64,000 bases of DNA from a virus (IMGVR_UViG_3300032288_005579), one strand, 5' to 3'. Counted from the first letter of the stretch, positions 7,204-64,000 are shown. Numbers and translations are program-made. Notes: generated by a model from the letters alone, not told the origin.

Positions 7204-7214
7204 TTTTTTATCTT

Positions 7215-9071: not shown

Positions 9072-9072
9072 G

Positions 9073-9486: not shown

Positions 9487-9496
9487 TTCACGGGTA

Positions 9497-9913: not shown

Positions 9914-9917
9914 ATTG

Positions 9918-9925
9918 ATAAATAT
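9918..9925 (-). promoter_or_regulatory. Putative late promoter ATATTTAT
   Basis: Coding strand reads ATATTTAT-caat-ATG. Confidence 0.6.
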
Positions 9926-9941
9926 GGCTTTTAGTTTTTTA

Positions 9942-12440: not shown

Positions 12441-12441
12441 T

Positions 12442-12867
12442 TTATTTTACAAATGTTGTTTTAGATAGTGTGCTGTTCAAAGTTGATTTTAAAGCAGCTA
12501 CTGAGCTATTCATTTTTTCAAAAGCGGCTTTATATGCTGCGTCATTCCCAGGTCCAGCGGCTTGAGCAAACACAGTGGCTGTATACATTGTATCGCAAAA
12601 TTTTTGAATTGCGTCAACCATTGTTTTACCCAATATAACTGGTTCGTTCTCACTTTCTGCTCCGTTTCCTAAGTATATTTTTTTAGAGAAAACTGCAGTG
12701 TATATGTCTGCGTCTAGATTTATAGTGCCCTTTGAGGATAATCCAACAGACTCTTTTCCAAAAATAAACGAAGAATCATTTTTAGAGTATAAAGAAACCC
12801 TATCGGACACTACCATTGTTTGGCTTCCGCTATATGGAAATTGTGGTCTATAATCGGATAGTGGCAT
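12442..12867 (-). CDS. Baseplate spike-like protein (gp5 C-terminal beta-helix-like half)
   Basis: Short alternating beta strands (SDRVSLYSK...FIFGKESVGLSSKGTINLDA...IYLG...EPVILG), typical of gp5/gpV spike C-termini. Confidence 0.5.
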   Translation of the reverse strand: MPLSDYRPQFPYSGSQTMVVSDRVSLYSKNDSSFIFGKESVGLSSKGTINLDADIYTAVFSKKIYLGNGAESENEPVILGKTMVDAIQKFCDTMYTATVFAQAAGPGNDAAYKAAFEKMNSSVAALKSTLNSTLSKTTFVK

Positions 12868-12883
12868 ACGAAATTACTTTAGA

Positions 12884-16733: not shown

Positions 16734-17702
16734 ATGAGCAAGAAAAAAGAAGTCCTGGATAAGAGTGTTCAGAAGCTTATACTCGGCGTGTTAGAGTCCC
16801 AATTGGGCAAAGGTAAGCCCGATAAGCTTGATAATTATACGTTCAATTGCCCAATCTGCAAGCACAGGAAACCGAAGCTCGTAGTAAACGTACGTACAGG
16901 CGCTTATAACTGTTGGACGTGTCATCCTCCCACAAAAGGAGGAAATCCCTCTTCACTTCTAAAAAAGATTGTGGCGCCGTCATCAGCTATAGTCGAGATG
17001 AAACAATACTACGGTATGAGCGTCACCAAAGAAGACACTCAGTCACAAGAAAACGTAGTAGAATTACCTAAAGAATATAAATTGATTACGTTTTCTAAAA
17101 AAGATACGTACGAAAACCGAGTTATCACGTATTTAAAAAAGAGGGGTCTAACTGAGCAAGACATTCTAAAGTACCAAATCGGATATTGCATGTCAGGGAG
17201 GTACAGAAACAGAGTCATAGTTCCGTCTTTCGATTCCCAAGGAAAATTAAATTACTTCGTGGCTAGATCGATAGACCCAAATGTTAAACCTGCTTACGAT
17301 GCACCAAGTATCAAGAAGACTGACATCATTGGTTTCGAATACTATATCAATTTCAACGTTCCAGTGGTGCTTTGCGAAGGAGCGTTTGACGCGATAGCCA
17401 TAAAAAGAAACGCTATACCCCTGTTCGGTAAAACAATTCCCAAAGCACTCATGATGAAACTTGTACAATCTCAAGTAAAAACTATATATTTAGCTTTGGA
17501 TAAGGACGCTATGCGAGAGAGTTACGACTACGCAGAGCAGCTATTAAACATGGGAAAAGACGTTTATTTTTTAGACATGGAAGACAAAGATCCATCAATC
17601 TTGGGTTTCGATAAGATGATCGAAATGCTGCAGCAAGCTAAACCCATGAATACACAAGATTTATTTTTTAGAAAGATGCAAATGGTATTGTACAAAATAT
17701 GA
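16734..17702 (+). CDS. DNA primase (zinc-binding domain plus TOPRIM)
   Basis: CPICKH...YNCWTC zinc finger; VVLCEGAFDAIAI and IYLALDKDA TOPRIM motifs. Confidence 0.9.
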   Translation: MSKKKEVLDKSVQKLILGVLESQLGKGKPDKLDNYTFNCPICKHRKPKLVVNVRTGAYNCWTCHPPTKGGNPSSLLKKIVAPSSAIVEMKQYYGMSVTKEDTQSQENVVELPKEYKLITFSKKDTYENRVITYLKKRGLTEQDILKYQIGYCMSGRYRNRVIVPSFDSQGKLNYFVARSIDPNVKPAYDAPSIKKTDIIGFEYYINFNVPVVLCEGAFDAIAIKRNAIPLFGKTIPKALMMKLVQSQVKTIYLALDKDAMRESYDYAEQLLNMGKDVYFLDMEDKDPSILGFDKMIEMLQQAKPMNTQDLFFRKMQMVLYKI

Positions 17703-20700
17703 GCGACATAGTAAAATCAAAACTACCGCTATCCAAGATAGATAAAATACATCACGTATCGGACGTACACATTAGGAATTACAAACGACACGCAGAATAC
17801 AATCGTGTGTTCAATAGGTTGTACGATAGGATAAAAACAAATCTAACTAAGAACGATCTTATAGTTCTTACTGGTGATATAGTACACTCTAAAACGGACG
17901 TCACACCCGAACTGTTCAACGAGGTTCAAAAGTTCCTAAACGGTCTGTGTGACATCGCACCGGTGCTCATGATACCCGGAAATCACGATACGAACCTCAA
18001 TAATTCTCACAGACTCGACGCGTTGACCCCGATAGTAAATGCTATGGCGTCATCTAAGCTAGAGTACTATAAAGATTCCGCCATAATTCGCTTAGGTAAT
18101 GTGGATTTTTACCACTGGTCTGTCATGGACGATGAACAGGACTACCCGTCTGTTATGGAAAATTCCCAAGTAAACATCGCGCTCTATCATGGTCCCGTAA
18201 ACAATTGCACGACTGAAGCTGGGTTCATCATAGAGAACGAGAGCATGACTGTGGAAAAATTCCGAGGCTTTGATGTGGTTCTTTTGGGCGACATACACAA
18301 GACACAGTTCTTAAACCCACAGAAAACAGTTGCCTATCCAGGATCCTTAATACAACAGAACCACGGAGAAGAACGCAAGCACGGTTATTTGCTATGGGAG
18401 GTAGAAAGCAGATTCGTGGAGTTCGTTGAGGTAGAAAACGACACGGCGTTTTACACCATAGATGTCGATGCGGGTCTACACAAACCCATAGACGAAACGC
18501 TTCCAGAGAATTTGCACCTTCGAGTAAGATACAAGAACACAGATCAAGCAACTCTGCGCGATATAGTCGACAGCGTGAGAAAACAGAAGAACATTGTAGA
18601 AATCACAACTCAGAGGATGAGTACTTTCACCTCTAGCGAAAAGACTCTCGATGCTTCTAAAACGTTGGACTTTAGATCCATAGAACAGCAGAAAAAGTTA
18701 CTCACAGATTTTCTCAAACAGAAGCATGATTTGAAACAAGAGGAGCTCGATAGAGTTCTTGAGATCAACGAACAGGTTAATAAATCACTGAAGAAAAGCG
18801 AAGTACCTAGGAACTCCATGTGGATTCCCAAGCGCTTTGAGTTCGAGAACATGTTCAGCTACGGAAAGAACAATTTCGTCGATTTTACGAACATGAAAGG
18901 TACTTTTGGACTTTTTGCGCCTAACGCAAGTGGTAAGTCCACGTTGCTTGATTCTTTGACGTATTGCATATTCGATAAGTGTACCAAGACCAATCGTGGT
19001 CACCAAGTCATGAACTCAAGTAGCAACACGTTTTACTGTAAATTGAATTTTGAGCTCAACGGGCTCGATTATTTCATAGAGAGAAACGCTAAGCGACAAA
19101 ACTCTGGAAACGTTAGGGTAGAAGTAGATTTCTACTACGTAGATGAAGAAGGAAACAAGATTTCTCTAAACGGAAAAGATCGATCGGACACTAATAATAG
19201 CATAAAAAACTTGCTGGGTAACTACGAGGACTTTGTTTTAACGACACTATCCACACAGAGCAACAATACTGGGTTCATAGACATGAATCAGAAAGACCGT
19301 AAGGACCTACTGAGTCAATTTATGGACATAGGAGTCTTCGAAGAACTGTACAATATAGCAAACGAGACCGCCAGGGAAAATGCAGCGGTACTAAAACACT
19401 TCCAGAAAACCGACTACGAATCAAAACTCTGCGAGATAGAGCACAATCTAGAACAATACAACAAAGATCTAAAAAAACAAAATCTAGAAAAAATTCATTC
19501 AGACTCGGAGAAGTCTGTTTTGACTGATAAGTTAGAAAAACTCATAAAAGAACTTGAGTATGTCGATACTTCTATAATAGACGAAAAGGCAATAAGCAAC
19601 AGCATACAATCTTCGAAAAGCAATTTGGTAGATCTTAAAGAGGCAAAACAATTACTCACTAACGAACTACATGCTCTTGCTATAGAGATAGACGAGTTAC
19701 ATTTTAGAATCGATTCAGTCGATGAAAAATCTCTCAAGACACAATTAGAAGAGTGTAAACAACTCGTAACCGAATTCAATAACGTTAATATAGAGAAACA
19801 AAAGTTATCAGAGCACATTTCCCATAAATTGGATAAAATGGGAAAATTGAAAGAGTTGGAATACGATCCAAACTGTAAGTATTGCATGGGAAATGTGTTT
19901 GTAAAAGACGCCATAACCGCAAAAGAACAAATAACTGCAGATAAAGAGAAGCTTCAAGTGTTAGAAAATAAGCACAAAGAACTCGCCTCTAGTGTAAAAA
20001 AGTGTGCATTGATCGAGCAATCTAGAGATTCTTACGAAGAAGTTAAAAGAATCTTAATGACCCTTAAGAATAAGTCTTCTGAATTGTCTTTGAAACTTGA
20101 GAGAGTCATCAATAAGATAAAATCAGAGGAGGATTCAATAAAATTGGGCGAAGAGAAACTACAACTTAGAAAAAAACAACTCTCTTCCATTAAGAAAAAC
20201 GAAATAACAAATAAAAAGATAGAGGACACCAAGCGTGATATCAAAGTGCTTGATGCGGAAATAAAATTGTTGAACTCCTCGCTATCAGATCTAAACGCGC
20301 AGATAAAGATAACTGAGAAGAGCATAGACGATTTAAGAACTGAGATTGATAAGCGTAAAGGCCTTGAAACTTCTCACCAACTGTATCAATACTATTTAGA
20401 AGCCACTCATAGGGACGGAATACCTCACGAAGTCATATCTGTAACAATACCACAGATAGAAGAGGAAGTCAACAACATCCTTTCTCAATTGGTTGATTTT
20501 AGGATAGTATTTGAAACTGACGATAAGAACGTCAACGCCTACATCGCCTACAGCGAAGAGCGGTTTTGGCCTTTAGAGTTGACTTCCGGAATGGAAAAGT
20601 TCGTCTCGTCCCTAGCAATTCGTACAGCACTTATCAACATATCCACCCTTCCCAGGCCCAATTTTATTGCGATAGACGAGGGCTTTGGATCTTTGGACAA

Positions 20701-20857
20701 ATCAAACCTTGGATCCATGTCGCTGCTCTTCGATTACTTAAAGACCCAATTCAAATTTATAGTTATAATATCCCACATTGACTCTATGCGTGACGTGGTA
20801 GACTCCTACATAGAAATCCACAAAGTAAAAGATAGGTCATTAGTGAACCACGAGTAG
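17699..20857 (+). CDS. Mre11/SbcD nuclease fused to Rad50/SbcC ATPase (gp47-gp46 fusion)
   Basis: Metallophosphoesterase motifs SDVH, TGDIVH, PGNHD, GDIHK. Then Walker A APNASGKST, coiled coil, CKYC zinc hook, TSGMEK signature, IAIDEGFGSLD Walker B/D-loop and IISH. Confidence 0.93.
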   Translation: MSDIVKSKLPLSKIDKIHHVSDVHIRNYKRHAEYNRVFNRLYDRIKTNLTKNDLIVLTGDIVHSKTDVTPELFNEVQKFLNGLCDIAPVLMIPGNHDTNLNNSHRLDALTPIVNAMASSKLEYYKDSAIIRLGNVDFYHWSVMDDEQDYPSVMENSQVNIALYHGPVNNCTTEAGFIIENESMTVEKFRGFDVVLLGDIHKTQFLNPQKTVAYPGSLIQQNHGEERKHGYLLWEVESRFVEFVEVENDTAFYTIDVDAGLHKPIDETLPENLHLRVRYKNTDQATLRDIVDSVRKQKNIVEITTQRMSTFTSSEKTLDASKTLDFRSIEQQKKLLTDFLKQKHDLKQEELDRVLEINEQVNKSLKKSEVPRNSMWIPKRFEFENMFSYGKNNFVDFTNMKGTFGLFAPNASGKSTLLDSLTYCIFDKCTKTNRGHQVMNSSSNTFYCKLNFELNGLDYFIERNAKRQNSGNVRVEVDFYYVDEEGNKISLNGKDRSDTNNSIKNLLGNYEDFVLTTLSTQSNNTGFIDMNQKDRKDLLSQFMDIGVFEELYNIANETARENAAVLKHFQKTDYESKLCEIEHNLEQYNKDLKKQNLEKIHSDSEKSVLTDKLEKLIKELEYVDTSIIDEKAISNSIQSSKSNLVDLKEAKQLLTNELHALAIEIDELHFRIDSVDEKSLKTQLEECKQLVTEFNNVNIEKQKLSEHISHKLDKMGKLKELEYDPNCKYCMGNVFVKDAITAKEQITADKEKLQVLENKHKELASSVKKCALIEQSRDSYEEVKRILMTLKNKSSELSLKLERVINKIKSEEDSIKLGEEKLQLRKKQLSSIKKNEITNKKIEDTKRDIKVLDAEIKLLNSSLSDLNAQIKITEKSIDDLRTEIDKRKGLETSHQLYQYYLEATHRDGIPHEVISVTIPQIEEEVNNILSQLVDFRIVFETDDKNVNAYIAYSEERFWPLELTSGMEKFVSSLAIRTALINISTLPRPNFIAIDEGFGSLDKSNLGSMSLLFDYLKTQFKFIVIISHIDSMRDVVDSYIEIHKVKDRSLVNHE

Positions 20858-39963: not shown

Positions 39964-41685
39964 ATGGCAAACTTAGTTCAAAACCTATTGTCCGAATCTG
40001 CCCAAACCGCTTTTGCTGATCAGAATGGCGTAGCCTCAAGATTAGCTAAGAAGTGGCAGAAGTCCGGACTCCTCGAGGGTCTTCAGGACTACGATAAGAC
40101 TGGCATGGCTGTCCTTTTGGAAAACCAAGCTAAGCAACTCGTAGTTGAAAACTCTCAAACCAACGGCGGCTTAAACGCTGGTGGTGCAACATTTACAGCA
40201 GGCACTGGCGAACAGTGGGCTGGTGTAGCTCTTCCGCTCGTGCGCAAGATCCTTGGTCAAATCTCTGCAAAAGAGTTCGTTAGCGTTCAGCCTATGAACC
40301 TTCCTGCGGGTCTGGTATTCTACCTCGACTTCCAGTACGGAGACACCAAGCGTCCTTTCACTACTGGAGATTCTCTCTACGGTAATGCAACCGCAAACTT
40401 CGGTAACGACAAAGCCGGTGCCCTTTACGGCGCTGGAAGATTCGGATACTCGTTGAACCAGTTCTCTGCATCCCTGTCGTCATCCAACCTTACGGCTTTC
40501 GGATCGGCTTCAGCTACATGGGACGAAGTTCGTTTCGATACAGCTTATTCAGCTTCTATCGTAAACAAGAGCATCACCAAATTCACAGTTCCTACTGCTT
40601 CTCTGTCTGCTTCTTTTAATGCACTCGGTGTAAGAGCGTTCATATTTACCACGGCTTCTTCGCCTGTAGGTACAACTAACGCAACTATCGGTGTCGCAGA
40701 TAACCTACAGCAGTTCACTAACATCTCTGCTTCCGTTGGTGGGGAATACATCGAATTCTTCATTAACAAAGCCATCGGCGGTGGTGGTAGCCACGCAAGT
40801 TCCGGCGTAAACAACACTTACGCTGTGTTCTTCAACAAGTCTACCGACTTCAACACTCGTGGTGATTTCGAAGATCGCACTGGCAACCCTTCCGTACCGA
40901 ACCAAGCTTCCGCAACATCTATCGTTATCCCAGAGATCAACGTACAGATGAAGTCTCAGACTGTGTCTGCAAAGACCCGCAAACTGAAGGCTCAGTGGAC
41001 GCCTGAATTCGCTCAGGACCTGAACGCTTACCACTCTCTCGACGCAGAAGCCGAATTGACCGGTATCCTCTCCGAGCACATCTCTCTTGAGATCGACCTC
41101 GAAGTTCTGGATATGTTGATCTCTCAGGCCCCTACAGTTGAGACTTGGTCCGCTACCGTTGGTAAACAAATCGACGCGGCAGGTACAGCGTTTAACCTGA
41201 ACACAAGCGGTGTATACTACACCCAGATGACCTGGTTCCAGACTCTCGGCATCAAACTGCAGAAAGTTAGCAACATCATCCACCAGAGAACTCTGCGTGG
41301 CGGTGCTAACTTCATGGTTGTTTCTCCGACCGTTGCTACCATACTCGAGTCCATCCCTGGATTCGCTGCTGATACAGACGGCGCAGCTGACAACATGAAG
41401 TACGCTTTCGGTGTGCAGAAAATCGGCGCTCTGAACAGCCGCTACAAAGTGTACAAAAACCCTTACATGACTGAGAACGTAATCCTTCTTGGTCTGAAAG
41501 GCTCCGCATTCCTAGAGTGTGGTGCAGTGTACGCCCCGTACGTGCCGCTGATCATGACGCCTCTTGTGTACGATCCTAATACCTTCACCCCTCGTAAAGG
41601 TATCATGACTCGCTACGCAATGACGATGCTGCGTCCTGAATTCTACGGCTTAGTACTCGTATCAGATCTGACTACAGCTCTCTGA
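39964..41685 (+). CDS. Major capsid protein (T4 gp23-like)
   Basis: AVLLENQAK, LPLVRK, FVSVQPMNLPAGLVFYLDF, TRKLKAQWTPEFAQDL, EIDLEVL, GAVYAPYVPL and FTPRKGIMTRYA. Confidence 0.97.
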   Translation: MANLVQNLLSESAQTAFADQNGVASRLAKKWQKSGLLEGLQDYDKTGMAVLLENQAKQLVVENSQTNGGLNAGGATFTAGTGEQWAGVALPLVRKILGQISAKEFVSVQPMNLPAGLVFYLDFQYGDTKRPFTTGDSLYGNATANFGNDKAGALYGAGRFGYSLNQFSASLSSSNLTAFGSASATWDEVRFDTAYSASIVNKSITKFTVPTASLSASFNALGVRAFIFTTASSPVGTTNATIGVADNLQQFTNISASVGGEYIEFFINKAIGGGGSHASSGVNNTYAVFFNKSTDFNTRGDFEDRTGNPSVPNQASATSIVIPEINVQMKSQTVSAKTRKLKAQWTPEFAQDLNAYHSLDAEAELTGILSEHISLEIDLEVLDMLISQAPTVETWSATVGKQIDAAGTAFNLNTSGVYYTQMTWFQTLGIKLQKVSNIIHQRTLRGGANFMVVSPTVATILESIPGFAADTDGAADNMKYAFGVQKIGALNSRYKVYKNPYMTENVILLGLKGSAFLECGAVYAPYVPLIMTPLVYDPNTFTPRKGIMTRYAMTMLRPEFYGLVLVSDLTTAL

Positions 41686-48000: not shown

Positions 48001-48921
48001 ACAATAACTGGCGGTGGAGGCGATTCTTTCCCCTATACTGGTTCCGCGATAATAAGCGGAAGTTTAACAGTAACCGGGTCTCTATATGTTAGCGGTACGT
48101 TGTATGGAGATGGAAGCGGACTGACAAATCTTGGATTCGGAAACACAAGGAAACTGATTCAATCCACTCCAGCCACCACATGGTCGTTTGCTCACAACAT
48201 GGGCGAACAGTATCCTGCGGTAACGATATACGATTCTAACACGAATGTTATAGTCCCTGGTAGAATAGAGGCCGTGGATACTAATAACTTGAAAGTCTAT
48301 TTCGATATAGCGCAATCGGGTATAGCAGTAGCGGTAGTAGCGGGAAGAGTAGAGACAGGAAGTTTAGCGAAATTAGAACAAACCATAGCCGCAAATACCT
48401 GGTCGTTTGCTCACAACCTAGGATACAGATACGCCATCATAGACGTGTTTGATTCAGCTGGGGATGTATTAGTTCCTGGAAGGATAGAGACCATAGACGA
48501 AAACAATGCGAATATATATTTCACCATAGCTCAAACAGGAACAGCTGTGGCGATGGTCGGAGGTACGGCATTGACTTCGTCATACGCAAACACGATGACC
48601 ATAAACGGTACATCGTTGAGCACCCAAACCAATCCCGACGCAGACACTGGAACAGAAATTGTGGCCACAGTTTACACCGGATCCTATCAATCAGCCTTCT
48701 TTGATTACGTATTGAACGACGGAACCAATTTCAGAGCAGGCACGGTGATGTCAGTTTGGGATAATATAGGAACCGTTAAGTACAACGATAACTCAACAGA
48801 CGACATTGGAAACACTACCGGAGTCATATTTATTGTAGACATAAACGGAGACACCGCGCAATTAAAAGTGACCACAAACAGCAACAATTGGAACATAAAA
48901 ACATTCGTAAGAGCACTTTGA
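45025..48921 (+). CDS. Long fibre protein with TASY repeats
   Basis: N-terminal LKLRRSSVPGKVP...LEFGEIALNTYDG fibre anchor, two repeat arrays, two TWSFAHN(M/L)G domains and a C-terminal beta domain. Confidence 0.8.
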   Translation: MSDQYLKLRRSSVPGKVPGIEQLEFGEIALNTYDGLAYMKKSGSAGEEIIQIGGVSSNTGNFTGSFSGSVVGLGQFTGSFSGSLSGSFYGSASYADTASYALSASYFLTSSVTSASYARTASYVNPLYQDVQITGSLYVTQSHISTVDWIDFTIDPQPDPPHLEGRIHWDVDRKTLKLDTEQADFSIDTGHVNVLRGKNNNSYALTPGMVIYIDGNAGQFATFTTASWENDPNSAYSIGIIPQTINPNNSGYAIIQGEISGINTNAYPPGTLLYLSASGQYTDQKPQAPLHTVRLGQVVVQATDGKLQVKIDNGYEIDELHDVLVTNATHGDLLVRSASIWINSKQLSGSYGLTGSFSISGSGIIGTSSFATSASYARTASYVDTALTASYFITSSVTSASYASTASYVVNALTASYFITSSVTSASYARTASYVDTALTASYFITSSVTSASYARSSSLAQTASYFITSSVTSASYAATASYVVNALTASYFITSSVTSASYASTASYVVNSLTASYFITSSVTSASYARTASYVDTALTASYFITSSVTSASYARSSSLAQTASYFITSSVTSASYAATASYVVNALTASYFITSSVTSASYAATASFVTGSSFTSANPVLSSSYALTSSFAWTASVALNAVGSVGGSGTVNRISKFVGATTLGNSQIFDDGTNIQITGSSIIFSGSNSTLRITGSVMSLGGFTGSLFGTSSWAINSLTASYFLTSSVTSASYARTASYVDTALTASYFITSSVTSASYARTASYVDTALTASYFITSSVTSASYARTASYVDTALTASYFITSSVTSASYARSSSLAQTASYFITSSVTSASYAATASYVVNALTASYFITSSVTSASYAATASYVTNALTASYFITSSVTSASYARTASYVDTALTASYFITSSVTSASYAISSSLAATASYITGSALNSSNLALSSSYAITASYALNAGGGGDITVADEGNAQGVATFLNFLGSGVTATVASSTASITITGGGGDSFPYTGSAIISGSLTVTGSLYVSGTLYGDGSGLTNLGFGNTRKLIQSTPATTWSFAHNMGEQYPAVTIYDSNTNVIVPGRIEAVDTNNLKVYFDIAQSGIAVAVVAGRVETGSLAKLEQTIAANTWSFAHNLGYRYAIIDVFDSAGDVLVPGRIETIDENNANIYFTIAQTGTAVAMVGGTALTSSYANTMTINGTSLSTQTNPDADTGTEIVATVYTGSYQSAFFDYVLNDGTNFRAGTVMSVWDNIGTVKYNDNSTDDIGNTTGVIFIVDINGDTAQLKVTTNSNNWNIKTFVRAL
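46141..46857 (+). repeat. Coding tandem array 1, TASYFITSSVTSASYA(RTASYVDTAL/ATASYVVNAL/RSSSLAQ), 9 copies
   Basis: 23-26-aa units counted in the translation; synonymous positions differ between copies. Confidence 0.9.
47185..47802 (+). repeat. Coding tandem array 2, same unit, 8 copies
   Basis: Counted in the translation. Confidence 0.9.
48826..48833 (+). promoter_or_regulatory. Possible internal late promoter ATATTTAT for the second fibre gene
   Basis: Sense-strand exact match inside the 3' end of the first fibre gene, 89 nt before the ATG at 48923. Confidence 0.3.
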
Positions 48922-54524: not shown

Positions 54525-54974
54525 ATGGCAAACGAATTCATAGCCAGGAATGGCATAATAGCAAGAAGTAATTCCGTAATAACGGGATCCCTATCGGTTA
54601 GTTCGTCTCTTTCTATAGGGGACATACAACCGTCTGCCACGATAGGCAGATTGGACGCATCAAACGACATAGTAGCTTTCAACAGCTCTGATAAAAGATT
54701 CAAAACGAACATAACTCCCATAGAGAATGCGCTTGAAAAAGTGCAGAAGATAAACGGCGTTGAATTCGATTGGATACCCGATCCGGTGAATCACGGGTAC
54801 CAGGGTCACGATGTCGGAGTGATAGCTCAAGAGATCGAGGAGGTCGTCCCAGAATTAGTAAGGACTAGGAACAGCGGTTACAAAGCCGTTAAATACGATA
54901 AGATAGTAGCACTACTAATAGAAGCGATAAAAGACCTTAAGAAAGAGATAGACGAACTGAAGAAAGGGAAGTAA
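54525..54974 (+). CDS. Mini-fibre with a peptidase S74 intramolecular chaperone domain
   Basis: SSDKRFKTNI..I.NALEKV.KINGV.FDW...GVIAQEIEEVVPELV...AVKYDKIVALLIEAIKDL, after only about 55 N-terminal residues. Confidence 0.9.
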   Translation: MANEFIARNGIIARSNSVITGSLSVSSSLSIGDIQPSATIGRLDASNDIVAFNSSDKRFKTNITPIENALEKVQKINGVEFDWIPDPVNHGYQGHDVGVIAQEIEEVVPELVRTRNSGYKAVKYDKIVALLIEAIKDLKKEIDELKKGK

Positions 54975-54976
54975 CC

Positions 54977-57900
54977 ATGCCTATACCCGCTTCAGGTCCG
55001 ATATCGATGAGTATGATGAATACGGAGCTGGGTAGGATACCCAATGCTCCTGTATCGATATTGGCCGGGGGACTGGTTCCCATAGAGGGATCTTTGTTTT
55101 GGTTGGGAGGACAGAGCGGTAGTTTAAACCAAACTGCGCCCCACTACTTCAGCGAATGGTACAATTATACTCCTAACAATTCCCCCACTCCTACACCTAC
55201 AGTATCTGTAACTGTAAGCGTTACTCCTACAGTTGGTATATCTTCTACGCCTAGTGTGAGCGTGACTCCGACAAAGAGTATCACTCCTACTATAAGCATA
55301 ACACCTACCATAAGTGTAACTTCTACGATCAGCGTTACTCCCACAATCAGCGTAACTCCAACTATAAGTGTAACTAAAACAATCACACCTACGATTAGCG
55401 TTACACAGACTACAAGCGTGACTGCTACTATAAGTTTAACTCCTACTATAAGCGTTACAAGAAGCGTTAGCATTACTCCCACGATAAGTATCACGACGAC
55501 CGTTACCCCTACAAATACTGCTACTCCTACGATAAGTGTCACTCCCACCATCAGCGTCACTCCTACTATTAGTTTGACTCCAACAATAAGCATTACTTCC
55601 ACCATCAGTGTCACTCCAACTAGAACAGCGACTGTAAGCGTAACTCCCACGATAAGTATAACTCCTACTATAAGCGTAACTAGCACAATTACTCCAACTA
55701 CTAGTGTAACTCCTACTATTAGTATAACACCTAGCATAAGTATTACGCCGACAATCAGCGTCACTCCTACTATTAGTATTACATCTACGATTAGCGCTAC
55801 AGCTGGAATAAGTCTTACTCCTACGGTAAGCATTACACCTACAATCAGTGTTACATCCACTATAACTCCTACAATAAGTACTACTCCCACTATAAGCATT
55901 ACACCTACTATTAGTATAACAAGCAGCATTACTCCCACTGTTAGTATTACACCCACCATTAGTGTTACTTCAACAATTAGCGTTACTCCTACCGTAAGTG
56001 TAACTAGAACAGTAACTCCTACGATAAGTGTTACTCCTACAATCAGTGTTACTCCTACCGTAAGTGTAACTAGTACAATAACTCCTACATTAAGCATTAC
56101 ACCTACTAATAGTATAACTCCTACTATAAGCGTAACTAGCACAATTACTCCCACTACTAGTGTAACTCCTACTATCAGCATTACTCCTACAATTAGCGTT
56201 ACATCGACGGTAACTCCCACTATTAGTGTAACACAGACTATTAGCGTAACTCCCACAATTAGTGTAACAACTACTGTTACGCCGACTATAAGTATTACTC
56301 CTACCATCAGTGTTACTTCTACAATAAGCTCAACCCCGGGAATAAGTCTCACTCCTACTGTGAGTATCACACCCACGATAAGTATAACTCCTACTATAAG
56401 CGTAACTAGCACAATTACTCCCACTACTAGTACTACGCCTACAATATCTATCACTCCAACTATAAGCATAACTTCCACTCCAACTCCTACTATTAGCGTC
56501 ACTCCCACAATTAGCATTACTCGAACCGCTAGTATAACTCCTACAATAAGCATAACCAATACGACTACTCCTACCATTAGCGTAAGTCCCACTATAAGTG
56601 TTACGCCAACTATTAGTATCACGCCTACAATAAGCATAACAAGTACCATTACGCCTACTATTAGCGTGACTAAAACAGCTACGATTACTCCAACAATCAG
56701 TATAACTCCTACTAGGACAATAACTCCAACGATAAGCGTAACTACAACGATTACTCCTACAATTAGTGTTACACAGACCGCAAGTATTACGCCTACAATA
56801 AGCGTAACTAGCACAATTACTCCTACAATTAGTGTAACGCCTAGCATGAGCATTACTTCCACAATTAGCGTTACGCCTACTATAAGTGTAACTAGAACAG
56901 TTACTCCCACGATCAGCATCACTCCAACTATAAGTGTTAGTCCAACGATAAGTGTAACAAGCACCGTTACGCCTACAATTAGTGTTACGCCGACTATAAG
57001 CGTTACTCCCACTATTAGTGTCACTTCCACAATAAGCGCAACTCCTGGAATAAGTACAACACCTACTGTCAGCATTACACCCACTATTAGTGTAACCGCG
57101 AGCATTACTCCAACTATCAGTATAACTCCAACTATTAGCATTACACCAACAATCAGCGTCACTCAAACGGTTAGTGTTACACCCACTATTAGTATTACTC
57201 AAACTGCTAGCATTACACCAACCACTAGTATAACTCCTACAATAAGTGTGACTAGTAGCGTTACTCCTACTATAAGCGTTAGTGCTACGGCGAGTGTTAC
57301 TCCTACTATAAGTGTAACTAATACAATAACACCAACAATCAGTATCACTCCGACTATATCAATCACTCCTACCATAAGTCTTACCCCCACAATCAGCGTT
57401 ACTAGATCTGTTACGCCTACTATAAGCGTCACTCCCACCATCAGCATTACACCGACTATAAGCATCACGCCTACTATAAGTGTAACTAGTACAATTACGC
57501 CTACCATAAGTGTAACTAGAACCGCAACTCCTACAATAAGTGTTACTCCTACCATAAGCGTAACACCTACCATAAGTGTAACTAGAACCGCAACTCCTAC
57601 AATAAGTGTTACTCCTACAATCAGCATCACTTCTACTATAACGGCTACTACCAGTGTTACACCCACAATTAGTATTACACCTACTATAAGTGTAACTAAA
57701 ACTGTAACTCCTACAATTAGTATTACTCCTACTATAAGTGTAACACCGACTATAAGTGTCACATCAACAGTTACCCCTACTATAAGCGCTACTCCTACGA
57801 TTAGTATCACTCCGACTATATCAATCACTCCTACCACAAGTATCACTCCGACCATTAGTATTACCCCCACAATCAGTGTTACCAGAACAGCAACTATTAC

Positions 57901-59857
57901 GCCTACGATCAGTGTTACTCCCACAATTAGCGTTACACCAACTATCAGTGTGACTCCTACGATTAGCATTACTCCTACTAGAACGGCCACTATCAGCGTT
58001 ACACCCACTATTAGCGTGACGCCAACCATAAGTGTCACTTCTACAATTACTCCCACAACGAGCGTTACTCCTACGATATCTATTACGCCTACGATTAGCG
58101 TAACCAAAACCATTACGCCAACAATAAGCATTACTCCAACGATCTCTATAACTCCCACTATTAGTATTACTTCTACTATAAGTGTTACGCCAACCATAAG
58201 TGTCACTTCAAGCGTTAGTGCAACTCCGACAATAAGCATTAGTCCTACTAGAACTGCTACAATAAGCGTTACACCGACTATAAGCATAACGCCCACAATA
58301 AGTGTAACTATAACTGTTACTCCCACTATTAGTATCACGCCTACGATTAGTATAACGCCCACAATAAGTGTAACTAGTAGCATAACTCCTACTATCAGCG
58401 TTACTCAAACCGCTAGCATAACTCCTACAATCAGTATTACTAGAACTGTAACTATAACTCCTACAATTAGTGTTACGCCTACAGTAACTCCTACAATCAG
58501 CATTACACAGACTTCATCAATTACTCCCACTATCAGTGTAACACCTACAATTAGTATTACGCGAACTGTTACTATAACTCCTACCATAAGCATAACGCAA
58601 ACGGCAACTATTACTTCAACGATCAGTGTAACTCCAACTATAAGTGTAACTCAAACAACTACAGTAACTCCGACAATTAGTGTTACGCCAACTATCAGTA
58701 TTACTAGAACCGCAACTATTACGCCTACTATAAGCATTACTCCTACAATAAGCATTACTCAAACTCCTACCATTACGCCTACTATTAGCATAACTCCTAC
58801 AACTACTATAACGCCAACCATCAGCATAACTCCTACAATCAGTATTACTAGAACCGTAACTATAACTCCTACTATAAGCATTACTCCTACAACAAGCGTT
58901 ACTCCAACTATATCTATAACTCCCACTATTAGCATAACTCCTACTATCAGCATTACACGTACTATAAGTGTGACTAGCACTGCTACACCAACGATCAGCG
59001 TAACTCCAACCATCAGCATTACTCCAAGTACCAGCGTAACTCCAACCATCAGCATAACTCCTACAATAAGTGTAACTCCTACAATTAGTATTACGCAAAC
59101 TGCAACCATTACTCCAACCATCAGCATAACTCCTACTATTAGTATTACAAGAACTCCTACCATTACGCCTACTATTAGCATAACTCCTACAACTACTATA
59201 ACGCCAACCATCAGCATAACTAGAACCGCAACTATTACTCCTACTATTAGCATAACTCCTACAATAAGTGTTACAAAAACTGCTACTATTAGCATAACTC
59301 CTACGAGGACAGCCACTATTAGCATTACACCAACAAGAACTCCTACCATTACACCTACTATTAGCATAACTCCTACGAGGACAGCCACTATTAGCATTAC
59401 ACCAACAAGAACTCCTACCATTACACCTACTATTAGCATAACTCCTACGAGGACGCCTAGTATTACGGCTACCCCAGTAACAGATCGCACGATAAATATA
59501 TATGTAAGTAATCAAGCGACTGTTACCATTAATGGACCTCTACAAACTTTTTATAAAATAGGAGTTGGAGGAAGCTGGACATTATTCAATAATACTTTTA
59601 ATAGTACAACGTGTACTAACCTTGGATCGGTATCGGTTCCTAACGGATCTTTGTTATATATCGGATTCCAAGACGCAAATAATGTAAACGTAGGTTTCGA
59701 TGCTGTGGCGCCCGGAACAAGTAGCACTACATGCCCTACTTTTACCGGTGTGGCTGACTACTGTAGAGATACATCTGATTGGTCTGATACTATAAATGCT
59801 AATGGTAGTAGAGCATTCACAATACAAGTAACAGGCGGAGAATATGTAGGTTGTTAA
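54977..59857 (+). CDS. Mucin-like Thr/Ser/Pro-repeat virion protein
   Basis: About 70-aa N-terminal domain (PASGPISMS..NTELG...FSEWY), about 1430 aa of TPTIS(V/I) repeats, and an approximately 120-aa C-terminal domain with four Cys. Confidence 0.85.
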   Translation: MPIPASGPISMSMMNTELGRIPNAPVSILAGGLVPIEGSLFWLGGQSGSLNQTAPHYFSEWYNYTPNNSPTPTPTVSVTVSVTPTVGISSTPSVSVTPTKSITPTISITPTISVTSTISVTPTISVTPTISVTKTITPTISVTQTTSVTATISLTPTISVTRSVSITPTISITTTVTPTNTATPTISVTPTISVTPTISLTPTISITSTISVTPTRTATVSVTPTISITPTISVTSTITPTTSVTPTISITPSISITPTISVTPTISITSTISATAGISLTPTVSITPTISVTSTITPTISTTPTISITPTISITSSITPTVSITPTISVTSTISVTPTVSVTRTVTPTISVTPTISVTPTVSVTSTITPTLSITPTNSITPTISVTSTITPTTSVTPTISITPTISVTSTVTPTISVTQTISVTPTISVTTTVTPTISITPTISVTSTISSTPGISLTPTVSITPTISITPTISVTSTITPTTSTTPTISITPTISITSTPTPTISVTPTISITRTASITPTISITNTTTPTISVSPTISVTPTISITPTISITSTITPTISVTKTATITPTISITPTRTITPTISVTTTITPTISVTQTASITPTISVTSTITPTISVTPSMSITSTISVTPTISVTRTVTPTISITPTISVSPTISVTSTVTPTISVTPTISVTPTISVTSTISATPGISTTPTVSITPTISVTASITPTISITPTISITPTISVTQTVSVTPTISITQTASITPTTSITPTISVTSSVTPTISVSATASVTPTISVTNTITPTISITPTISITPTISLTPTISVTRSVTPTISVTPTISITPTISITPTISVTSTITPTISVTRTATPTISVTPTISVTPTISVTRTATPTISVTPTISITSTITATTSVTPTISITPTISVTKTVTPTISITPTISVTPTISVTSTVTPTISATPTISITPTISITPTTSITPTISITPTISVTRTATITPTISVTPTISVTPTISVTPTISITPTRTATISVTPTISVTPTISVTSTITPTTSVTPTISITPTISVTKTITPTISITPTISITPTISITSTISVTPTISVTSSVSATPTISISPTRTATISVTPTISITPTISVTITVTPTISITPTISITPTISVTSSITPTISVTQTASITPTISITRTVTITPTISVTPTVTPTISITQTSSITPTISVTPTISITRTVTITPTISITQTATITSTISVTPTISVTQTTTVTPTISVTPTISITRTATITPTISITPTISITQTPTITPTISITPTTTITPTISITPTISITRTVTITPTISITPTTSVTPTISITPTISITPTISITRTISVTSTATPTISVTPTISITPSTSVTPTISITPTISVTPTISITQTATITPTISITPTISITRTPTITPTISITPTTTITPTISITRTATITPTISITPTISVTKTATISITPTRTATISITPTRTPTITPTISITPTRTATISITPTRTPTITPTISITPTRTPSITATPVTDRTINIYVSNQATVTINGPLQTFYKIGVGGSWTLFNNTFNSTTCTNLGSVSVPNGSLLYIGFQDANNVNVGFDAVAPGTSSTTCPTFTGVADYCRDTSDWSDTINANGSRAFTIQVTGGEYVGC
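55185..59478 (+). repeat. Degenerate coding repeat of 18-bp units encoding T-P-T-I-S-(V/I), with 4-aa variants
   Basis: Continuous over about 4.3 kb; roughly 240 units estimated from length. Codons are shuffled. Confidence 0.95.
59286..59454 (+). repeat. Exact 72-bp tandem duplication (about 2.3 copies)
   Basis: ctattagcataactcctacgaggac starts at 59286, 59358 and 59430. Confidence 0.85.
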
Positions 59858-59904
59858 AAATTTGCACTTAAAAGTTGAATGGCAAATTCCATCCAGAAAA
59901 TGGT

Positions 59905-59912
59905 ATATTTAT
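59905..59912 (+). promoter_or_regulatory. Putative late promoter ATATTTAT of the glycosyltransferase operon
   Basis: Intergenic, 30 nt before the ATG at 59943. Confidence 0.6.
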
Positions 59913-59942
59913 AGTAAATGATCGTTTCGGCAAAACTAGTTT

Positions 59943-61199
59943 ATGGCAAAAATATTTGTTTCGATAGCTTCATACAGAGATCCAGAATTACTTCCTACTT
60001 TAAGAGATTGTATCGCTAACGCCGATCAACCAGATAATCTGGTATTCGGTATATGTTGGCAACACGCAAAAGAGGACGAGTGGGATAACTTAGATCAATT
60101 TAAAAAAGACAAAAGGTTCAGGATACTTGACATAGATCACAAGGAATCAAAGGGCGTTTGTTGGGCAAGGAATAAAATAGGGTCTTTATATAAAGACGAG
60201 GACTATTATATGCAATTGGATTCTCACCACCGTTTCATACAGGGTTGGGACTCCAAATTAAAGGACATGATAGGTTATCTACAGTCCCAGTGTTACGAAA
60301 AACCCATACTCTCTACCTATCTGCCTTCCTATTTTCCTGAAAAAGATCCAGCAGATAGAACTCAAGAGGTTTGGTTTTTAAACATAGATAGGTTTTTACC
60401 AGAGGGCGCAGTATTCCTACGTCCACAGGGTTTAGACGGATGGAGAGATATGAAAGAGCCAGTTAGATCCAGATTCTTATCAGCTCACTTTATATTTACT
60501 CTTGGTAAATTCGCTAAAGAGGTTCCTTACGATCCGTATCTGTATTTTCACGGAGAAGAAACTTCATTGGCGGCTAGAGCTTTTACTCATGGGTACGATA
60601 TATTTAATCCTCACAGGATATATGTTTGGCACGAATACACGAGAGAAGGAAAGAAAAAACACTGGGACGATCACACCTCATATCCGGACCTTGATAAGAC
60701 CTCTTACGCGCGTTTTAGAAAGCTTTTTGCGATGGAAGGAGAATGTACTCCGTGTACGATAAAGAGTTTTGGAGAATTTTATTTTGGAAACGAAAGAACT
60801 CTTGAAGAGTACGAACGTTACGCGGGATTAAAGTTTAAAACCAGACAAATACACGAAGAGACTCTACAACACAAACCTGCCCCTATTGTAGGAGATTACG
60901 AATCGGGATTGAAGAGCAAAGTGAAAGTTTGTATAGACGTGTATAGAGGGGCTTTAAAAGAAACCGATTACGATACTTTCGTTATCGCTCTACTAGACGA
61001 AAACGGAAAGGATTTGTATAGACAAGACGCTGATAAAAACGAGATCTCTATGATCATGAATTCTGACATTAAAGACCAATTTGTGCACATTTGGAGAGAA
61101 TACGAAAGCCAAAAATTGCCTCACAGTTGGAGAGTTTGGCCCCATAGCGAATCAAAAGGTTGGATGGAAAGAATAGAAAACGTTATAAAATATGAGTAA
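59943..61199 (+). CDS. GT60-like polypeptide N-acetylglucosaminyltransferase (GlcNAc family), paralogue 1
   Basis: IFVSIASYRDPEL..TL, GVCWARN, YMQLDSHHRF..GWD (DxH), FLSAHFIF, YDP.LYFHGEE.SLAARAFTHGYD and WHEY. Confidence 0.85.
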   Translation: MAKIFVSIASYRDPELLPTLRDCIANADQPDNLVFGICWQHAKEDEWDNLDQFKKDKRFRILDIDHKESKGVCWARNKIGSLYKDEDYYMQLDSHHRFIQGWDSKLKDMIGYLQSQCYEKPILSTYLPSYFPEKDPADRTQEVWFLNIDRFLPEGAVFLRPQGLDGWRDMKEPVRSRFLSAHFIFTLGKFAKEVPYDPYLYFHGEETSLAARAFTHGYDIFNPHRIYVWHEYTREGKKKHWDDHTSYPDLDKTSYARFRKLFAMEGECTPCTIKSFGEFYFGNERTLEEYERYAGLKFKTRQIHEETLQHKPAPIVGDYESGLKSKVKVCIDVYRGALKETDYDTFVIALLDENGKDLYRQDADKNEISMIMNSDIKDQFVHIWREYESQKLPHSWRVWPHSESKGWMERIENVIKYE

Positions 61200-62460
61200 G
61201 AAACTAGAGACAATACTGCTGCATCTTCCCTCTTACAGGGATCCAGAACTTATACCCACAATCAAAGACGCTTTAGAAAAAGCGAAATATCCCAAAAGGA
61301 TTCATTTCGGAATATGCCGTCAATACCACCCTGAAGATAAGTTTGACGATCTGACAGAATACAAATCGGACAAACGATTCAAGATTTACGAGTGTTTGTA
61401 TACGGAGGCAAAAGGACTTCCCTGGGCGAGATCTATCATAAATGAGAAGCTGCTTGACGACGAAGACTACATATGTCAATTGGACTCACATCACAGATTC
61501 GCTCAAGATTGGGACGAGACTCTTATAACTATGCACAACGACCTTGAGAAGAGGGGCTACAAGAAACCTATCGTTGCTGGTTATTCTCCTCTGTACGATC
61601 CGTTCAACGACCCAGCAGGAAGATCGATGGAACCGTGGCAATCTCAGTTCGTATGCTTCTATCCCCACGGTACTATATTTATTCGACCAGGTTTGTTGCA
61701 CGGTTACCAAAACATGACAGAGCCACCGATGTCTAGGTTCCTCTGCGGGCATTTCGATTTCGCAAGAAGCGAATGGGCTAGAGAGATCAAGCACGATCCA
61801 GACATCTACTTTAGCGGTGAGGAAATAAATCTCACAGTAAGATCTTACACTCACGGTTACGATTTCTTTCATCCACATAAGATCGTAGTTTGGCATTCGA
61901 CAATGAGAGAAGAGCGCGCTGGAAAATTGAAATGGGACGATGATGCTAGATTGGGCGTTGATTGGTATAATAAACAAGAATATGCTCGCAGAAAAATACG
62001 CTGCTTACTTCGCACAGAAGAGGGTGTCGATTTAACGGGTTACGATTTGGGCACAGTTAGAACTTTGCGAGATTACGAAAGATACGCAGGATTCAACTTT
62101 AAAAAGAAAGCTGTTCAAAAATATACTCTAGAAAATAAATATCCTCCGAACCCTGTGATAGAGGATCCCGAACTATGGGAACAATCATTCATGAATTCGT
62201 ACTATCATCTCGTAGACGTACAAAGGTCTATGTTCAAAGAAGATAAATATAAATTTGTGTTGGTAGCTTTTGATGACGAGACTGGTAAATCTGTCAATAG
62301 TAAATTTATAGACGATTATAGATTGGAAATGTTTAATAAGGGCCAAAATATTCATTACGAAGAGTACTTCTTATCAGAAAAGAAGCCTACACGAGTAGTG
62401 TATTGGGGACACACTGAAGAAAAAGGCTGGTGCGAAAGGTACGAATTCAATATAGGATAA
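61192..62460 (+). CDS. GT60-like polypeptide N-acetylglucosaminyltransferase, paralogue 2
   Basis: PSYRDPEL, GLPWAR, CQLDSHHRFAQDWD, FLCGHFDF and HDP.IYFSGEEI.LTVRSYTHGYD. Overlaps paralogue 1 by 8 nt. Confidence 0.85.
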   Translation: MSKKLETILLHLPSYRDPELIPTIKDALEKAKYPKRIHFGICRQYHPEDKFDDLTEYKSDKRFKIYECLYTEAKGLPWARSIINEKLLDDEDYICQLDSHHRFAQDWDETLITMHNDLEKRGYKKPIVAGYSPLYDPFNDPAGRSMEPWQSQFVCFYPHGTIFIRPGLLHGYQNMTEPPMSRFLCGHFDFARSEWAREIKHDPDIYFSGEEINLTVRSYTHGYDFFHPHKIVVWHSTMREERAGKLKWDDDARLGVDWYNKQEYARRKIRCLLRTEEGVDLTGYDLGTVRTLRDYERYAGFNFKKKAVQKYTLENKYPPNPVIEDPELWEQSFMNSYYHLVDVQRSMFKEDKYKFVLVAFDDETGKSVNSKFIDDYRLEMFNKGQNIHYEEYFLSEKKPTRVVYWGHTEEKGWCERYEFNIG

Positions 62461-62477
62461 CAAAAAGATAGAACATA

Positions 62478-64000
62478 ATGGCTAACATATCTTTTTACGG
62501 TTCGCACAACGCTGCGTATGTCGTAGAGAAAGACGGAGAGATTATACTAGTATTAGAGGTAGAGAGATTCTTAAACCACAAGAATAGTGGAATCGCCCAG
62601 TATAATTGTCCAAGAACTGACGATATTCTGTTTTTCGCAGAGTATATTCCTAAATGGATCATGAAAAAATTGGACATAGAAGAATTTGACAATTGCTTTT
62701 ATTCTAATAGCGATGTGATAATGGACGAAGTTCGTTATTGTTTACATAAAGCCATACCCGCCAAAAAATATACAGAGTGTTGGCATCACCAATCTCACGC
62801 AGCTGGAGCTTTTTATCAATCTAATCACAAGAAAGCATTGATATTCTCTTTCGACGGAGGAGGAAATGATGGAAAATTTTGTGTGTACACTTGCAATAGA
62901 GGAGAGTCTCCAAAATTATTGAAGAGCGTATTAAATCCTGTGCTGAATCATCCTCATATAGGTTATGATTTGGGATTTCCCTACATGGTATTAGCGCACT
63001 ATCTAAAAGATATAAAGTACGAAGATCTGGGAATGGGTAACTTAGTTTATCCTGGAAAACTTATGGGTCTTGCGTCATATGGAAAAGTTATTGAAGATTG
63101 GATACCCGCTTTCACAAAATTTTATAAGAGTAATCCAGATGGAGGAAATTATCACAGTAAAGTAAGCGAACTTTCTGAAGAAATTGGAGTAGTATTCGAT
63201 GTTAATAATCGTCTTGATGGACAAATCGCCTACGACATAGCGGCCACAACTCAGAGAGTGTTCGAAGATTGTTTCTTAGAAATCGCTAAACCCTATATTG
63301 ATGAGTACCCTGATTATCCCATTTGTGTAACAGGAGGATGCGGATTAAACATCATATTGAACACTAGATTAGTCACAGAATTAGAAAAAGAAGTTTTCGT
63401 AGGACCAGATCCAAATGATTGTGGAATTGCATTAGGAATGATGCTCAATTACTTGAAGCCAGCAAAACCTTACGATTCCACCTACTCAGGAACAGAACTA
63501 CTAGATATAGATACGCTTTCGGCTAAAATACAGGGCGTAGGATTCCCTATGAAGAGTCGAAGACTAAATCTTACAAATCTAGCAAAAGATATTGAAGCAG
63601 GCAAAATAGTGGGAGTAGCTAGAGGGAGATCAGAACACGGTCCTCGAGCACTAGGAAATAGAAGCATAATTTGCAATCCCGCAATCGCTAACATGAAAGA
63701 CGTGCTTAATGAAAAGGTAAAACACAGAGAGTGGTATAGGCCTTTTGCGCCCGTGGTTAGATTAGAAGATGTCAATAAGTACTTTGAATGGAATAAAGAA
63801 TCCAGATGGATGAGTTTTTGTCCCAAAGTAAAAGAAGAGTGGAAAAGCAGACTTGGAGCTATAACCCACGTAGATGGAACCGCGAGAGTTCAAACTGTTA
63901 CTAGAAAACAAAACGAATTCTTATACGATCTATTGACTGAATTTGAAAAGGTGACTGGCGTGGGAGTTTTACTCAATACCTCATTTAATGTGGACGGTAA
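62478..64000 (+). CDS. Carbamoyltransferase, NodU/CmcH/TobZ family, partial (runs off the window end; absent from the ORF track)
   Basis: GSHNAA...EVERF..HK, HHQSHAAGAFYQS, SFDGGG, GKLMGLASYG, TGGCGLN, NDCG.ALG, SEHGPRALGNRSI, KHREWYRPFAP, HVDGTARVQTV and LLNTSFN. Confidence 0.95.
   Translation, partial: MANISFYGSHNAAYVVEKDGEIILVLEVERFLNHKNSGIAQYNCPRTDDILFFAEYIPKWIMKKLDIEEFDNCFYSNSDVIMDEVRYCLHKAIPAKKYTECWHHQSHAAGAFYQSNHKKALIFSFDGGGNDGKFCVYTCNRGESPKLLKSVLNPVLNHPHIGYDLGFPYMVLAHYLKDIKYEDLGMGNLVYPGKLMGLASYGKVIEDWIPAFTKFYKSNPDGGNYHSKVSELSEEIGVVFDVNNRLDGQIAYDIAATTQRVFEDCFLEIAKPYIDEYPDYPICVTGGCGLNIILNTRLVTELEKEVFVGPDPNDCGIALGMMLNYLKPAKPYDSTYSGTELLDIDTLSAKIQGVGFPMKSRRLNLTNLAKDIEAGKIVGVARGRSEHGPRALGNRSIICNPAIANMKDVLNEKVKHREWYRPFAPVVRLEDVNKYFEWNKESRWMSFCPKVKEEWKSRLGAITHVDGTARVQTVTRKQNEFLYDLLTEFEKVTGVGVLLNTSFNVDG

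Follow-up and report, generated by a model that had tools for sequence, protein, structure and literature searches.

A predicted phage cassette for cytoplasmic mucin-type O-glycosylation of a Pro/Thr/Ser-repeat fibre stalk

The GT60 family of glycosyltransferases (GTs; PF11397) is known from protists, where polypeptide alpha-GlcNAc (N-acetylglucosamine)-transferases such as Dictyostelium Gnt1, pp-alphaGlcNAcT2 and the Trypanosoma cruzi mucin GlcNAc-transferase start O-glycans on Thr/Ser-rich mucin repeats or on a hydroxyproline of Skp1; Gnt1 among these is soluble and cytoplasmic. In animals, mucin-type O-glycosylation is initiated by the GT27 family, whose members are type-II membrane proteins of the Golgi and carry a ricin-type lectin domain. 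In the serine-rich-repeat (SRR) adhesins, O-linked N-acetylhexosamine (HexNAc) is added in the cytoplasm to a very long Ser/Thr stalk that presents a binding domain, with GtfA and GtfB starting the glycan and a variable set of GTs extending it. A further relevant activity is that of NodU, which carbamoylates a GlcNAc hydroxyl of Nod factors. To our knowledge, protein glycosylation of phage particles has been recorded in few cases only, and O-glycosylation of the mucin type is considered a trait of eukaryotes. Here we describe a cassette found in positions 54525-64000 of a 64,000-nt stretch of DNA (hereafter the window) from a large uncultured water phage, IMGVR_UViG_3300032288_005579. From its sequence, we consider it probable that this cassette is an accessory element of the tail/fibre module that supplies a fibre stalk together with the enzymes for its cytoplasmic, mucin-type O-glycosylation.

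The proposed acceptor is the product of an open reading frame (ORF) at 54977-59857 on the + strand, on which all the features of the cassette given below also lie. It is a protein of 1,626 aa with three parts: an N-terminal domain of 64 aa (residues 1-64; 54977..55168), presumed to be the attachment or anchor domain; a stalk of 1,431 aa (residues 65-1495; 55169..59461); and a C-terminal tip of ~125 aa (59480..59857, with the stop codon). The initial annotation had described about 1430 residues of TPTIS(V/I) repeats here, and the stalk indeed consists of hexapeptide repeats of this type, 130 of which are exact TPTIS(V/I) hexamers. Its composition (36.5% T, 19.4% I, 16.7% S, 12.7% P and 8.5% V), with 762 Ser/Thr residues (53% T+S) and neither Asp nor Glu, is that of the long Thr/Ser/Pro-dominated tandem repeats of mucin-type proteins, although its 28% of Ile/Val is atypical of these. 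Hydroxyl and non-hydroxyl residues alternate in 92% of the steps along the stalk. The DNA units of the repeat are degenerate, with only 60-80% matches at periods of 18/36/66 as determined by Tandem Repeats Finder, so that it is at the level of the protein that selection preserves the repeat, which is no artefact of recent slippage.

Comparisons with relatives throw light on the organization of this protein. Independent assemblies of two close relatives (L005 and L006) encode versions of 1,757 and 2,184 aa, in which the anchor is 92-98% identical though the tips differ, while in a homologue of just 177 aa (P0129) the same type of anchor is fused straight to the tip and the stalk is absent. The other tip homologues (n=9, this protein included) are found behind Pro/Thr/Ser-rich (PTS) or poly-Thr linkers. 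These sequences therefore point to an architecture in which the anchor is conserved, the stalk is a spacer free to vary in length and the tip can be exchanged. The tip has four conserved Cys residues and is predicted to be a modular beta-sandwich (model with pLDDT 91.7) whose likeness to adhesins, carbohydrate-binding modules and pilins is generic only; neither anchor nor tip has a match in Pfam or PHROG. The alternative tip on the same anchor and stalk in L005 (9396-9902) and L006 (9405-9914) is weakly PKD/SprB-like, with a GGTSPYTY motif. The nearest cultured relatives of the window phage are Flavobacterium phage immuto (TerL 54% and sheath 50% identical) and Microcystis phage Mel-JY01; the former accords with such tips, since it is in Bacteroidota that SprB repeats are typically found. 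The repeat also contains long reverse-strand ORFs (window 55165-59515, up to 665 aa) and has a GC skew of -0.4; both are by-products of the ACN/CCN-rich codons, and we rejected these ORFs as genes.

Directly downstream, as initially annotated, are two paralogous transferases, GT60-A (418 aa; 59943..61199) and GT60-B (422 aa; 61192..62460), whose genes overlap by 8 nt. Their matches to PF11397 greatly exceed the gathering score of 21 (245.6 bits, E 1.3e-72, and 164 bits, E 9e-48, respectively), and the DSH and YFxGEE motifs that had been noticed earlier are present in both as DSH(HR) and YF(H/S)GEE. The two proteins are 40% identical and retain DSH(HR), GEE, a His and a W-DD motif in common: the invariant residues D93-S-H95, G204-E-E206 and H230 of GT60-A have as their equivalents D98-S-H100, GEE 209-211 and H235 in GT60-B. 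The AlphaFold model of GT60-A (pLDDT 92.3, pTM 0.87) displays a GT-A catalytic domain (residues 1 to ~320) followed by a C-terminal beta domain, and since its first strand already starts at residue 4 the enzyme is predicted to be soluble. A relation to the GT27 polypeptide GalNAc-transferases, which the initial annotation had invoked for the family, is borne out by the fold, to which GT27 is the nearest; the GT-A fold, the DxH metal-binding motif and the conserved acidic and His residues are common to both. Searches with phmmer and with a profile of 35 GT60 sequences recovered no PDB chain at E <= 1, and the relation to solved enzymes accordingly rests on fold only. Proteins related to GT60-A are very abundant in metagenomes, amounting to more than 7,000 protein clusters. 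In relatives with identities as low as 46%, the two orthologue classes still occur as a conserved pair, and in L011 and L012 (9917-13126) the paralogues are fused in a protein of 1,069 aa with four PF11397 stretches; the fused relative reaches 404.8 bits with two domains in the Pfam search. This fusion is a Rosetta-stone hint that the two might act jointly. By analogy with the characterized members, we infer that the phage GT60s transfer an alpha-HexNAc to a polypeptide hydroxyl, with GlcNAc being suggested by family precedent only.

The phage enzymes share with the protist GT60s the Pfam family at a very high score, the GT-A fold, the DxH metal motif and, with Gnt1, solubility. However, the phage and bacterial enzymes add the C-terminal beta domain (~320-418) and form a conserved, sometimes fused pair. 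From GT27 the phage enzymes are separated by a sequence identity of only 12-18%, by their solubility and by their C-terminal beta domain, to which we assign no lectin role. The likeness of the proposed system to the SRR adhesins, namely a repeat stalk, a paralogous initiating pair and variable extending GTs, is functional only: whereas GtfA/GtfB are GT-B (GT4) proteins of which GtfB is non-catalytic, the phage pair is of the GT-A/GT60 type with catalytic motifs in both members, and the accessory Sec system is absent in the phage. We found no paper on GT60/PF11397 in phages, and a 2024 review of viral O-glycosylation leaves phages unmentioned. The closest published cases are the glycosylation of the mycobacteriophage capsid and tail tube (Freeman et al., 2023, as related in PMC12619734) and unexplained glycoprotein bands in phage XacN1 (PMC5852040). 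According to the former account, phage GTs decorate the phage's own structural proteins, as is proposed here; however, the glycans it reports are on short C-termini of capsid and tail-tube proteins, whereas the acceptor proposed here is a dedicated stalk of up to ~1,800 residues.

The third enzyme of the cassette, the NodU-family carbamoyltransferase reported initially, is present at 62478..64000, where the window end cuts it to the first 507 of 539 aa; the full gene is found on L001. It is an O-carbamoyltransferase of the NodU/TobZ/NovN type with the same two-domain architecture as those enzymes, combining a Kae1/ASKHA-like N-terminal domain (Carbam_trans_N, PF02543, 1.9e-23) with a YrdC-like C-terminal domain (Carbam_trans_C, PF16861, 2.3e-55). 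Its best solved relatives are NovN, TobZ and GdmN (E 1e-44 to 1e-48), and these enzymes act on hydroxyls of sugars or natural products. The activity of NodU on a GlcNAc hydroxyl would suit a GlcNAc installed by GT60 in the phage. A carbamoyltransferase gene immediately follows GT60 in the phages XacN1 (as ORF333), Xoo-sp13 and RAS14. Conservation of this adjacency in phages of Xanthomonas and Stenotrophomonas points to placement of the carbamoyl group on or near the first sugar. The enzyme is optional, since one relative with the GT60 pair (G005) is without it.

We then examined whether the stalk and the enzymes travel together, as the initial annotation had proposed to test in related phage genomes. 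T/S/P-repeat genes were found with GT60 not only in relatives but also in distant cultured jumbo phages and in bacteria. Among 11 IMG/VR loci with a full GT60, PTS tracts are found no more than 10 kb away in nine and slightly beyond the flank in one other; often there are several PTS proteins per locus. In some of these (L009 and L013), short anchor-stalk-tip proteins occur directly upstream of the GT60 pair and after an S74 protein, while others have C-terminal PTS tails on further structural proteins or proteins with Cys-rich domains. Three relatives (G004, G005 and G006) served as genome-level proxies for the window phage. G006 (100% complete, 179.6 kb; 77% identity in TerL and 71% in the sheath) shows synteny over the region between TerL and the neck genes and yet the PTS protein, both GT60s, the carbamoyltransferase and the HtrL protein are all absent from it as one block before the sheath; it is the only informative member of a TerL-based control set consisting mostly of short fragments. 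Conversely, the sheath of G005 (93% complete) is only 37% identical, yet this genome has the GT60 pair and at least nine PTS ORFs, most of them <=25 kb from the pair.

A second phage group, unrelated to that of the window phage, shows the same linkage. In INPHARED, a GT60 of the phage type is found only in XacN1, Xoo-sp13, CM1 and RAS14. PTS matches number 25 in XacN1, 27 in Xoo-sp13 and 17 in RAS14, and fall in ORFs of ~350-2,800 residues, several of which adjoin the tail sheath; in XacN1 the PTS proteins include ORF350, 369, 370, 372 and 384. Immuto, Mel-JY01, PA5oct and RsoM2USA, the last of which is the next sheath relative of XacN1, have no GT60 and no PTS matches. It is this joint gain and loss of stalk and enzymes that makes it, in our view, very probable that the phage glycosylates its own appendage. 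Purified XacN1 virions display at least two Schiff-positive glycoprotein bands, for which the authors suggest the phage GTs ORF328 and ORF334 (PMC5852040) without drawing a link to Pro/Thr tracts; we find that ORF334 is a GT60 homologue and ORF328 a GT9-like GT.

A comparable association emerged from 80 bacterial loci, sampled from many phyla, with GT60 homologues 34-55% identical. Clean Pro/Thr linkers occur within 1.25 kb of GT60 at 20 of these loci, a density of 10.4 per 100 kb, as against 1.8 per 100 kb at a distance of 5-10 kb. The resulting ratio of 5.7 (binomial p 2.5e-6, uncorrected for relatedness) involves at least about ten independent lineages. The linkers mostly abut GT60 on the same strand, in neighbouring proteins that are otherwise diverse, and tandem GT60 pairs are encoded at 25 of the 80 loci. 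All the in-silico checks suggested in the initial annotation turned out in favour of its reading.

Certain observations weigh against the proposed stalk glycosylation. One fragment with GT60 (L008; 26 kb, 10% complete) shows no PTS; the Schiff-positive bands of XacN1 are not identified in the paper describing them (PMC5852040); and the co-occurrence counts represent few independent lineages, with ~3 contrasts among phages and ~10 or more bacterial lineages. Further, the strict alternation of Ile/Val with hydroxyl residues in the stalk is unusual for a mucin and compatible with a beta-structured fibre. This last point favours an alternative whereby virion glycosylation is directed elsewhere (capsid, sheath or fibre termini) and PTS is an unglycosylated spacer or a beta fibre, with a Thr/Ser face for self-assembly or for binding ice or surfaces. 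The degree of alternation and the Ile/Val content would suit amphipathic beta strands, the gene of an S74 trimerisation chaperone abuts the repeat gene, and the mycobacteriophage glycans, as given in PMC12619734, are on capsid and tail-tube C-termini. However, PTS and GT60 are jointly gained or lost in two unrelated phage groups, and Pro/Thr linkers abut GT60 in many bacterial phyla, where there is no capsid. Moreover, the presence of Pro at every sixth residue, the free length (80 to ~1,800 aa) and the varied motif (TPSV, TPTIS, PTPT) point to a spacer defined by composition, with no fixed fold. We therefore regard this alternative as unlikely.

Two more adverse observations concern DNA. The GT60-carbamoyltransferase pair of XacN1 is not in a structural module but has DNA polymerase, RNase H and NUDIX genes as its neighbours, and G004, whose GT60-A is 87% identical to that of the window, encodes a dUTPase, a dCMP deaminase and a thymidylate synthase (TS) homologue with Asp at the Asn177-equivalent position (cytosine type), implying that a hydroxymethyl-pyrimidine acceptor for the sugar or carbamoyl might exist in the DNA of a close relative. 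This raises the alternative of DNA hypermodification, in which the GT60s and/or the carbamoyltransferase act on 5-hydroxymethyl-pyrimidines to give glycosyl- or carbamoyloxymethyl-cytosine, and the repeat protein is an unrelated neighbour. The replication-gene neighbourhood in XacN1 is its main support. There is also a precedent in a phage sub-clade of the NodU-type family that acts on 5-hydroxymethylcytosine (5hmC) in DNA, yields 5-carbamoyloxymethylcytosine and is found together with TS homologues and dCMP deaminases (PMC8670742).

Nevertheless, several lines of evidence make this reading very improbable as a whole, its chance being somewhat higher for the carbamoyltransferase alone. G005 has the GT60 pair but no match to PF00303, Tet_JBP or a C5-methylase (the Tet_JBP search being run without a positive control). 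TS homologues are present in G006, from which GT60 and the carbamoyltransferase are both absent, so that the presence of the carbamoyltransferase tracks GT60 and not the TS homologue. In G004 the carbamoyltransferase is ~35 kb from the TS cluster and flanked by GTs, a context that the eLife study (PMC8670742) reports for unmodified contigs. The window enzyme is likewise flanked by GT60 and an HtrL/GT2 protein, with no TS-family hydroxymethylase, dCMP deaminase or PRA-PH in its neighbourhood, and this argues against its membership in the 5hmC-modifying sub-clade. A GT-B gene situated 1.7 kb from the TS homologue of G004 is a better-placed candidate for a DNA-modifying GT. As for the transferases, the initial annotation had allowed that they might match a DNA-modifying family better, and this was not seen. 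The known DNA-hypermodifying GT-A enzymes of phages are JGT/TarP-like, with R...DDD...EDY/F motifs, and are encoded beside C5-methyltransferase (C5-MT)/5mYOX or ThyS genes (bioRxiv 10.1101/2023.12.21.572611), whereas the phage GT60s bear no resemblance to these DDD-motif enzymes and have neither the motifs nor the adjacency. The co-occurrence of GT60 and PTS in phages and bacteria would also be left unexplained. The TS cluster of G004 (L194, G004:66000-82000; 9005-13702) comprises genes for the dUTPase, the dCMP deaminase, a 211-aa TS homologue, a PD-(D/E)XK nuclease and the GT-B (Glycos_transf_1), and is itself a candidate 5hmC-glycosylation cluster separate from the GT60 cassette.

The position and presumptive regulation of the operon bear on a further alternative. 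The motif ATATTTAT occurs in 17 copies in the window against 6.2 expected, a number reached in 0 of 100 shuffles. Thirteen copies are in gene orientation, 4-90 nt upstream of gene starts (window 1486-59912), and these sites include TerL, genes beside the portal and capsid genes, those at 45025 and 48923, and the first GT60. The copy at 59905..59912 (+ strand) is 30 nt upstream of the last of these, in agreement with the earlier claim that the GT genes sit behind the same motif as the structural genes (TerL and head genes). The copy at 48826..48833 (+ strand), 89 nt upstream of the gene at 48923, is the last before a run of fibre genes (48923 -> 53714 -> 54525 -> 54977). This arrangement supports co-regulation of the GT operon with the structural genes, with the timing, i.e. 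late co-expression as initially envisaged, resting on the common upstream motif only. A scan for intrinsic terminators between the repeat gene and the GT operon returned nothing convincing. More generally, ATATTTAT looks like a late or structural promoter element of this lineage; given that some copies are 4 nt from the start codon, it is possibly one that gives rise to near-leaderless mRNAs.

Such an arrangement is at odds with the notion that the island modifies an envelope glycan of the host, such as lipopolysaccharide (LPS), capsule or a teichoic-acid-like polymer, during infection, for example to block superinfection. This notion takes its appeal from the HtrL/YibB and GT2 families, which are typical of LPS/polysaccharide synthesis, and from the GT9-like ORF328 of XacN1; NodU-type enzymes are also established to carbamoylate oligosaccharides. 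But the operon, preceded by the structural-gene motif, has fibre genes on one side and sheath genes on the other, the fold of GT60 is closest to that of polypeptide transferases, and the islands examined showed no genes for a flippase, a polymerase or a lipid carrier. With the PTS co-occurrence again left unexplained, we consider this reading very improbable.

Returning to the glycosylation of the phage's own stalk, a three-step pathway can be envisaged. In the first step, the soluble GT60 paralogues would place the first sugar on Thr/Ser residues of the stalk in the cytoplasm; by family precedent, these retaining GT-A enzymes with a DxH metal site would add an alpha-linked HexNAc from a UDP-sugar. 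In the second, the downstream HtrL/GT2 protein would extend the chain, a role that in relatives might fall to GTs (GT2-like and GT10-like), methyltransferases and epimerases in varying combinations. The genes after the GT60 pair in relatives code for GT2-like and GT10-like enzymes, FkbM and SAM methyltransferases, HtrL and NAD-epimerase proteins; several genes for proteins of 280-390 aa in the glycan islands of L005, L006 and L008 have no match in Pfam or PHROG. In the third, the NodU-type enzyme would O-carbamoylate a sugar hydroxyl. The product, if incorporated into the virion, would be a long, stiffened and protease-shielded glycosylated tether presenting a binding domain. If extended at ~0.25 nm/residue, as in glycosylated mucin domains, the stalk would span an estimated ~350 nm.

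A broader hypothesis, which we consider about evenly balanced, is that GT60 represents a widespread and hitherto undescribed prokaryotic and phage system for cytoplasmic mucin-type O-glycosylation of Pro/Thr/Ser linkers. Under this hypothesis, large aquatic and soil phages would build glycosylated tethers, several hundred nm long if extended, with swappable glycan-tailoring genes (here for carbamoylation) and exchangeable tips, to be deployed as a 'fishing line' or a shield. If the cassette works as proposed, a large share of the big environmental phages and many bacteria would glycosylate Pro/Thr-rich stalks in the cytoplasm, with a bearing on phage adsorption, stability, shielding from proteases and antibodies, and host range; it would also provide a simple means, requiring just two genes, of producing mucin-like glycoproteins in bacteria. 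XacN1 would allow a direct test of the idea, being cultured and having Schiff-positive virions as well as public virion proteomics data (ProteomeXchange PXD008065), although PTS tracts contain no tryptic sites.

The cassette extends past the window end. The window's genes recur on a 186,914-bp ENA contig that begins within the repeat gene. On this contig the carbamoyltransferase is followed by a 602-aa HtrL_YibB/GT2 protein and two small ORFs, after which come the tail sheath and a baseplate protein of the T4 type. Taken with the 59 kb upstream in the window, this contig indicates a genome that is probably larger than 240 kb. A megablast search of the cassette against cultured phages gave no match. 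The window genes are those of a large myophage, including a fused SbcCD, TerL, portal, T4-type capsid, neck and baseplate genes.

Immediately upstream of the repeat gene, and ending 2 nt before its start, is a gene at 54525..54974 whose 149-aa product has ~54 aa followed by a Peptidase_S74 intramolecular chaperone domain (PF13884, E 7.5e-19, residues 55-113) and matches PHROG tail-fibre families. This is an unusually short protein to host such a domain, and its possible roles are those of a mini-fibre or of a chaperone for the neighbouring protein. The gene order of S74 protein, PTS protein and GT60 pair recurs in L009 and L013.

Elsewhere in the window, a single ORF of 1,052 aa (17699-20857) combines an N-terminal SbcD-like part with an SbcC-like part. 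The major capsid protein (39964-41685, 573 aa) matches the T4-type capsid family over residues 315-555 only, and so has a long N-terminal extension. Among the bacterial loci, five from Sphingomonas (L170, L173, L174, L178 and L180; about 5950-9990) encode Pro/Thr-linker proteins of 1,220-1,350 aa abutting GT60. A second GT60 copy was not found in L170, but is present 1.6 kb downstream in the other four. The L170 protein, which was the one scanned, additionally contains an Rv2525c-like glycoside-hydrolase domain.

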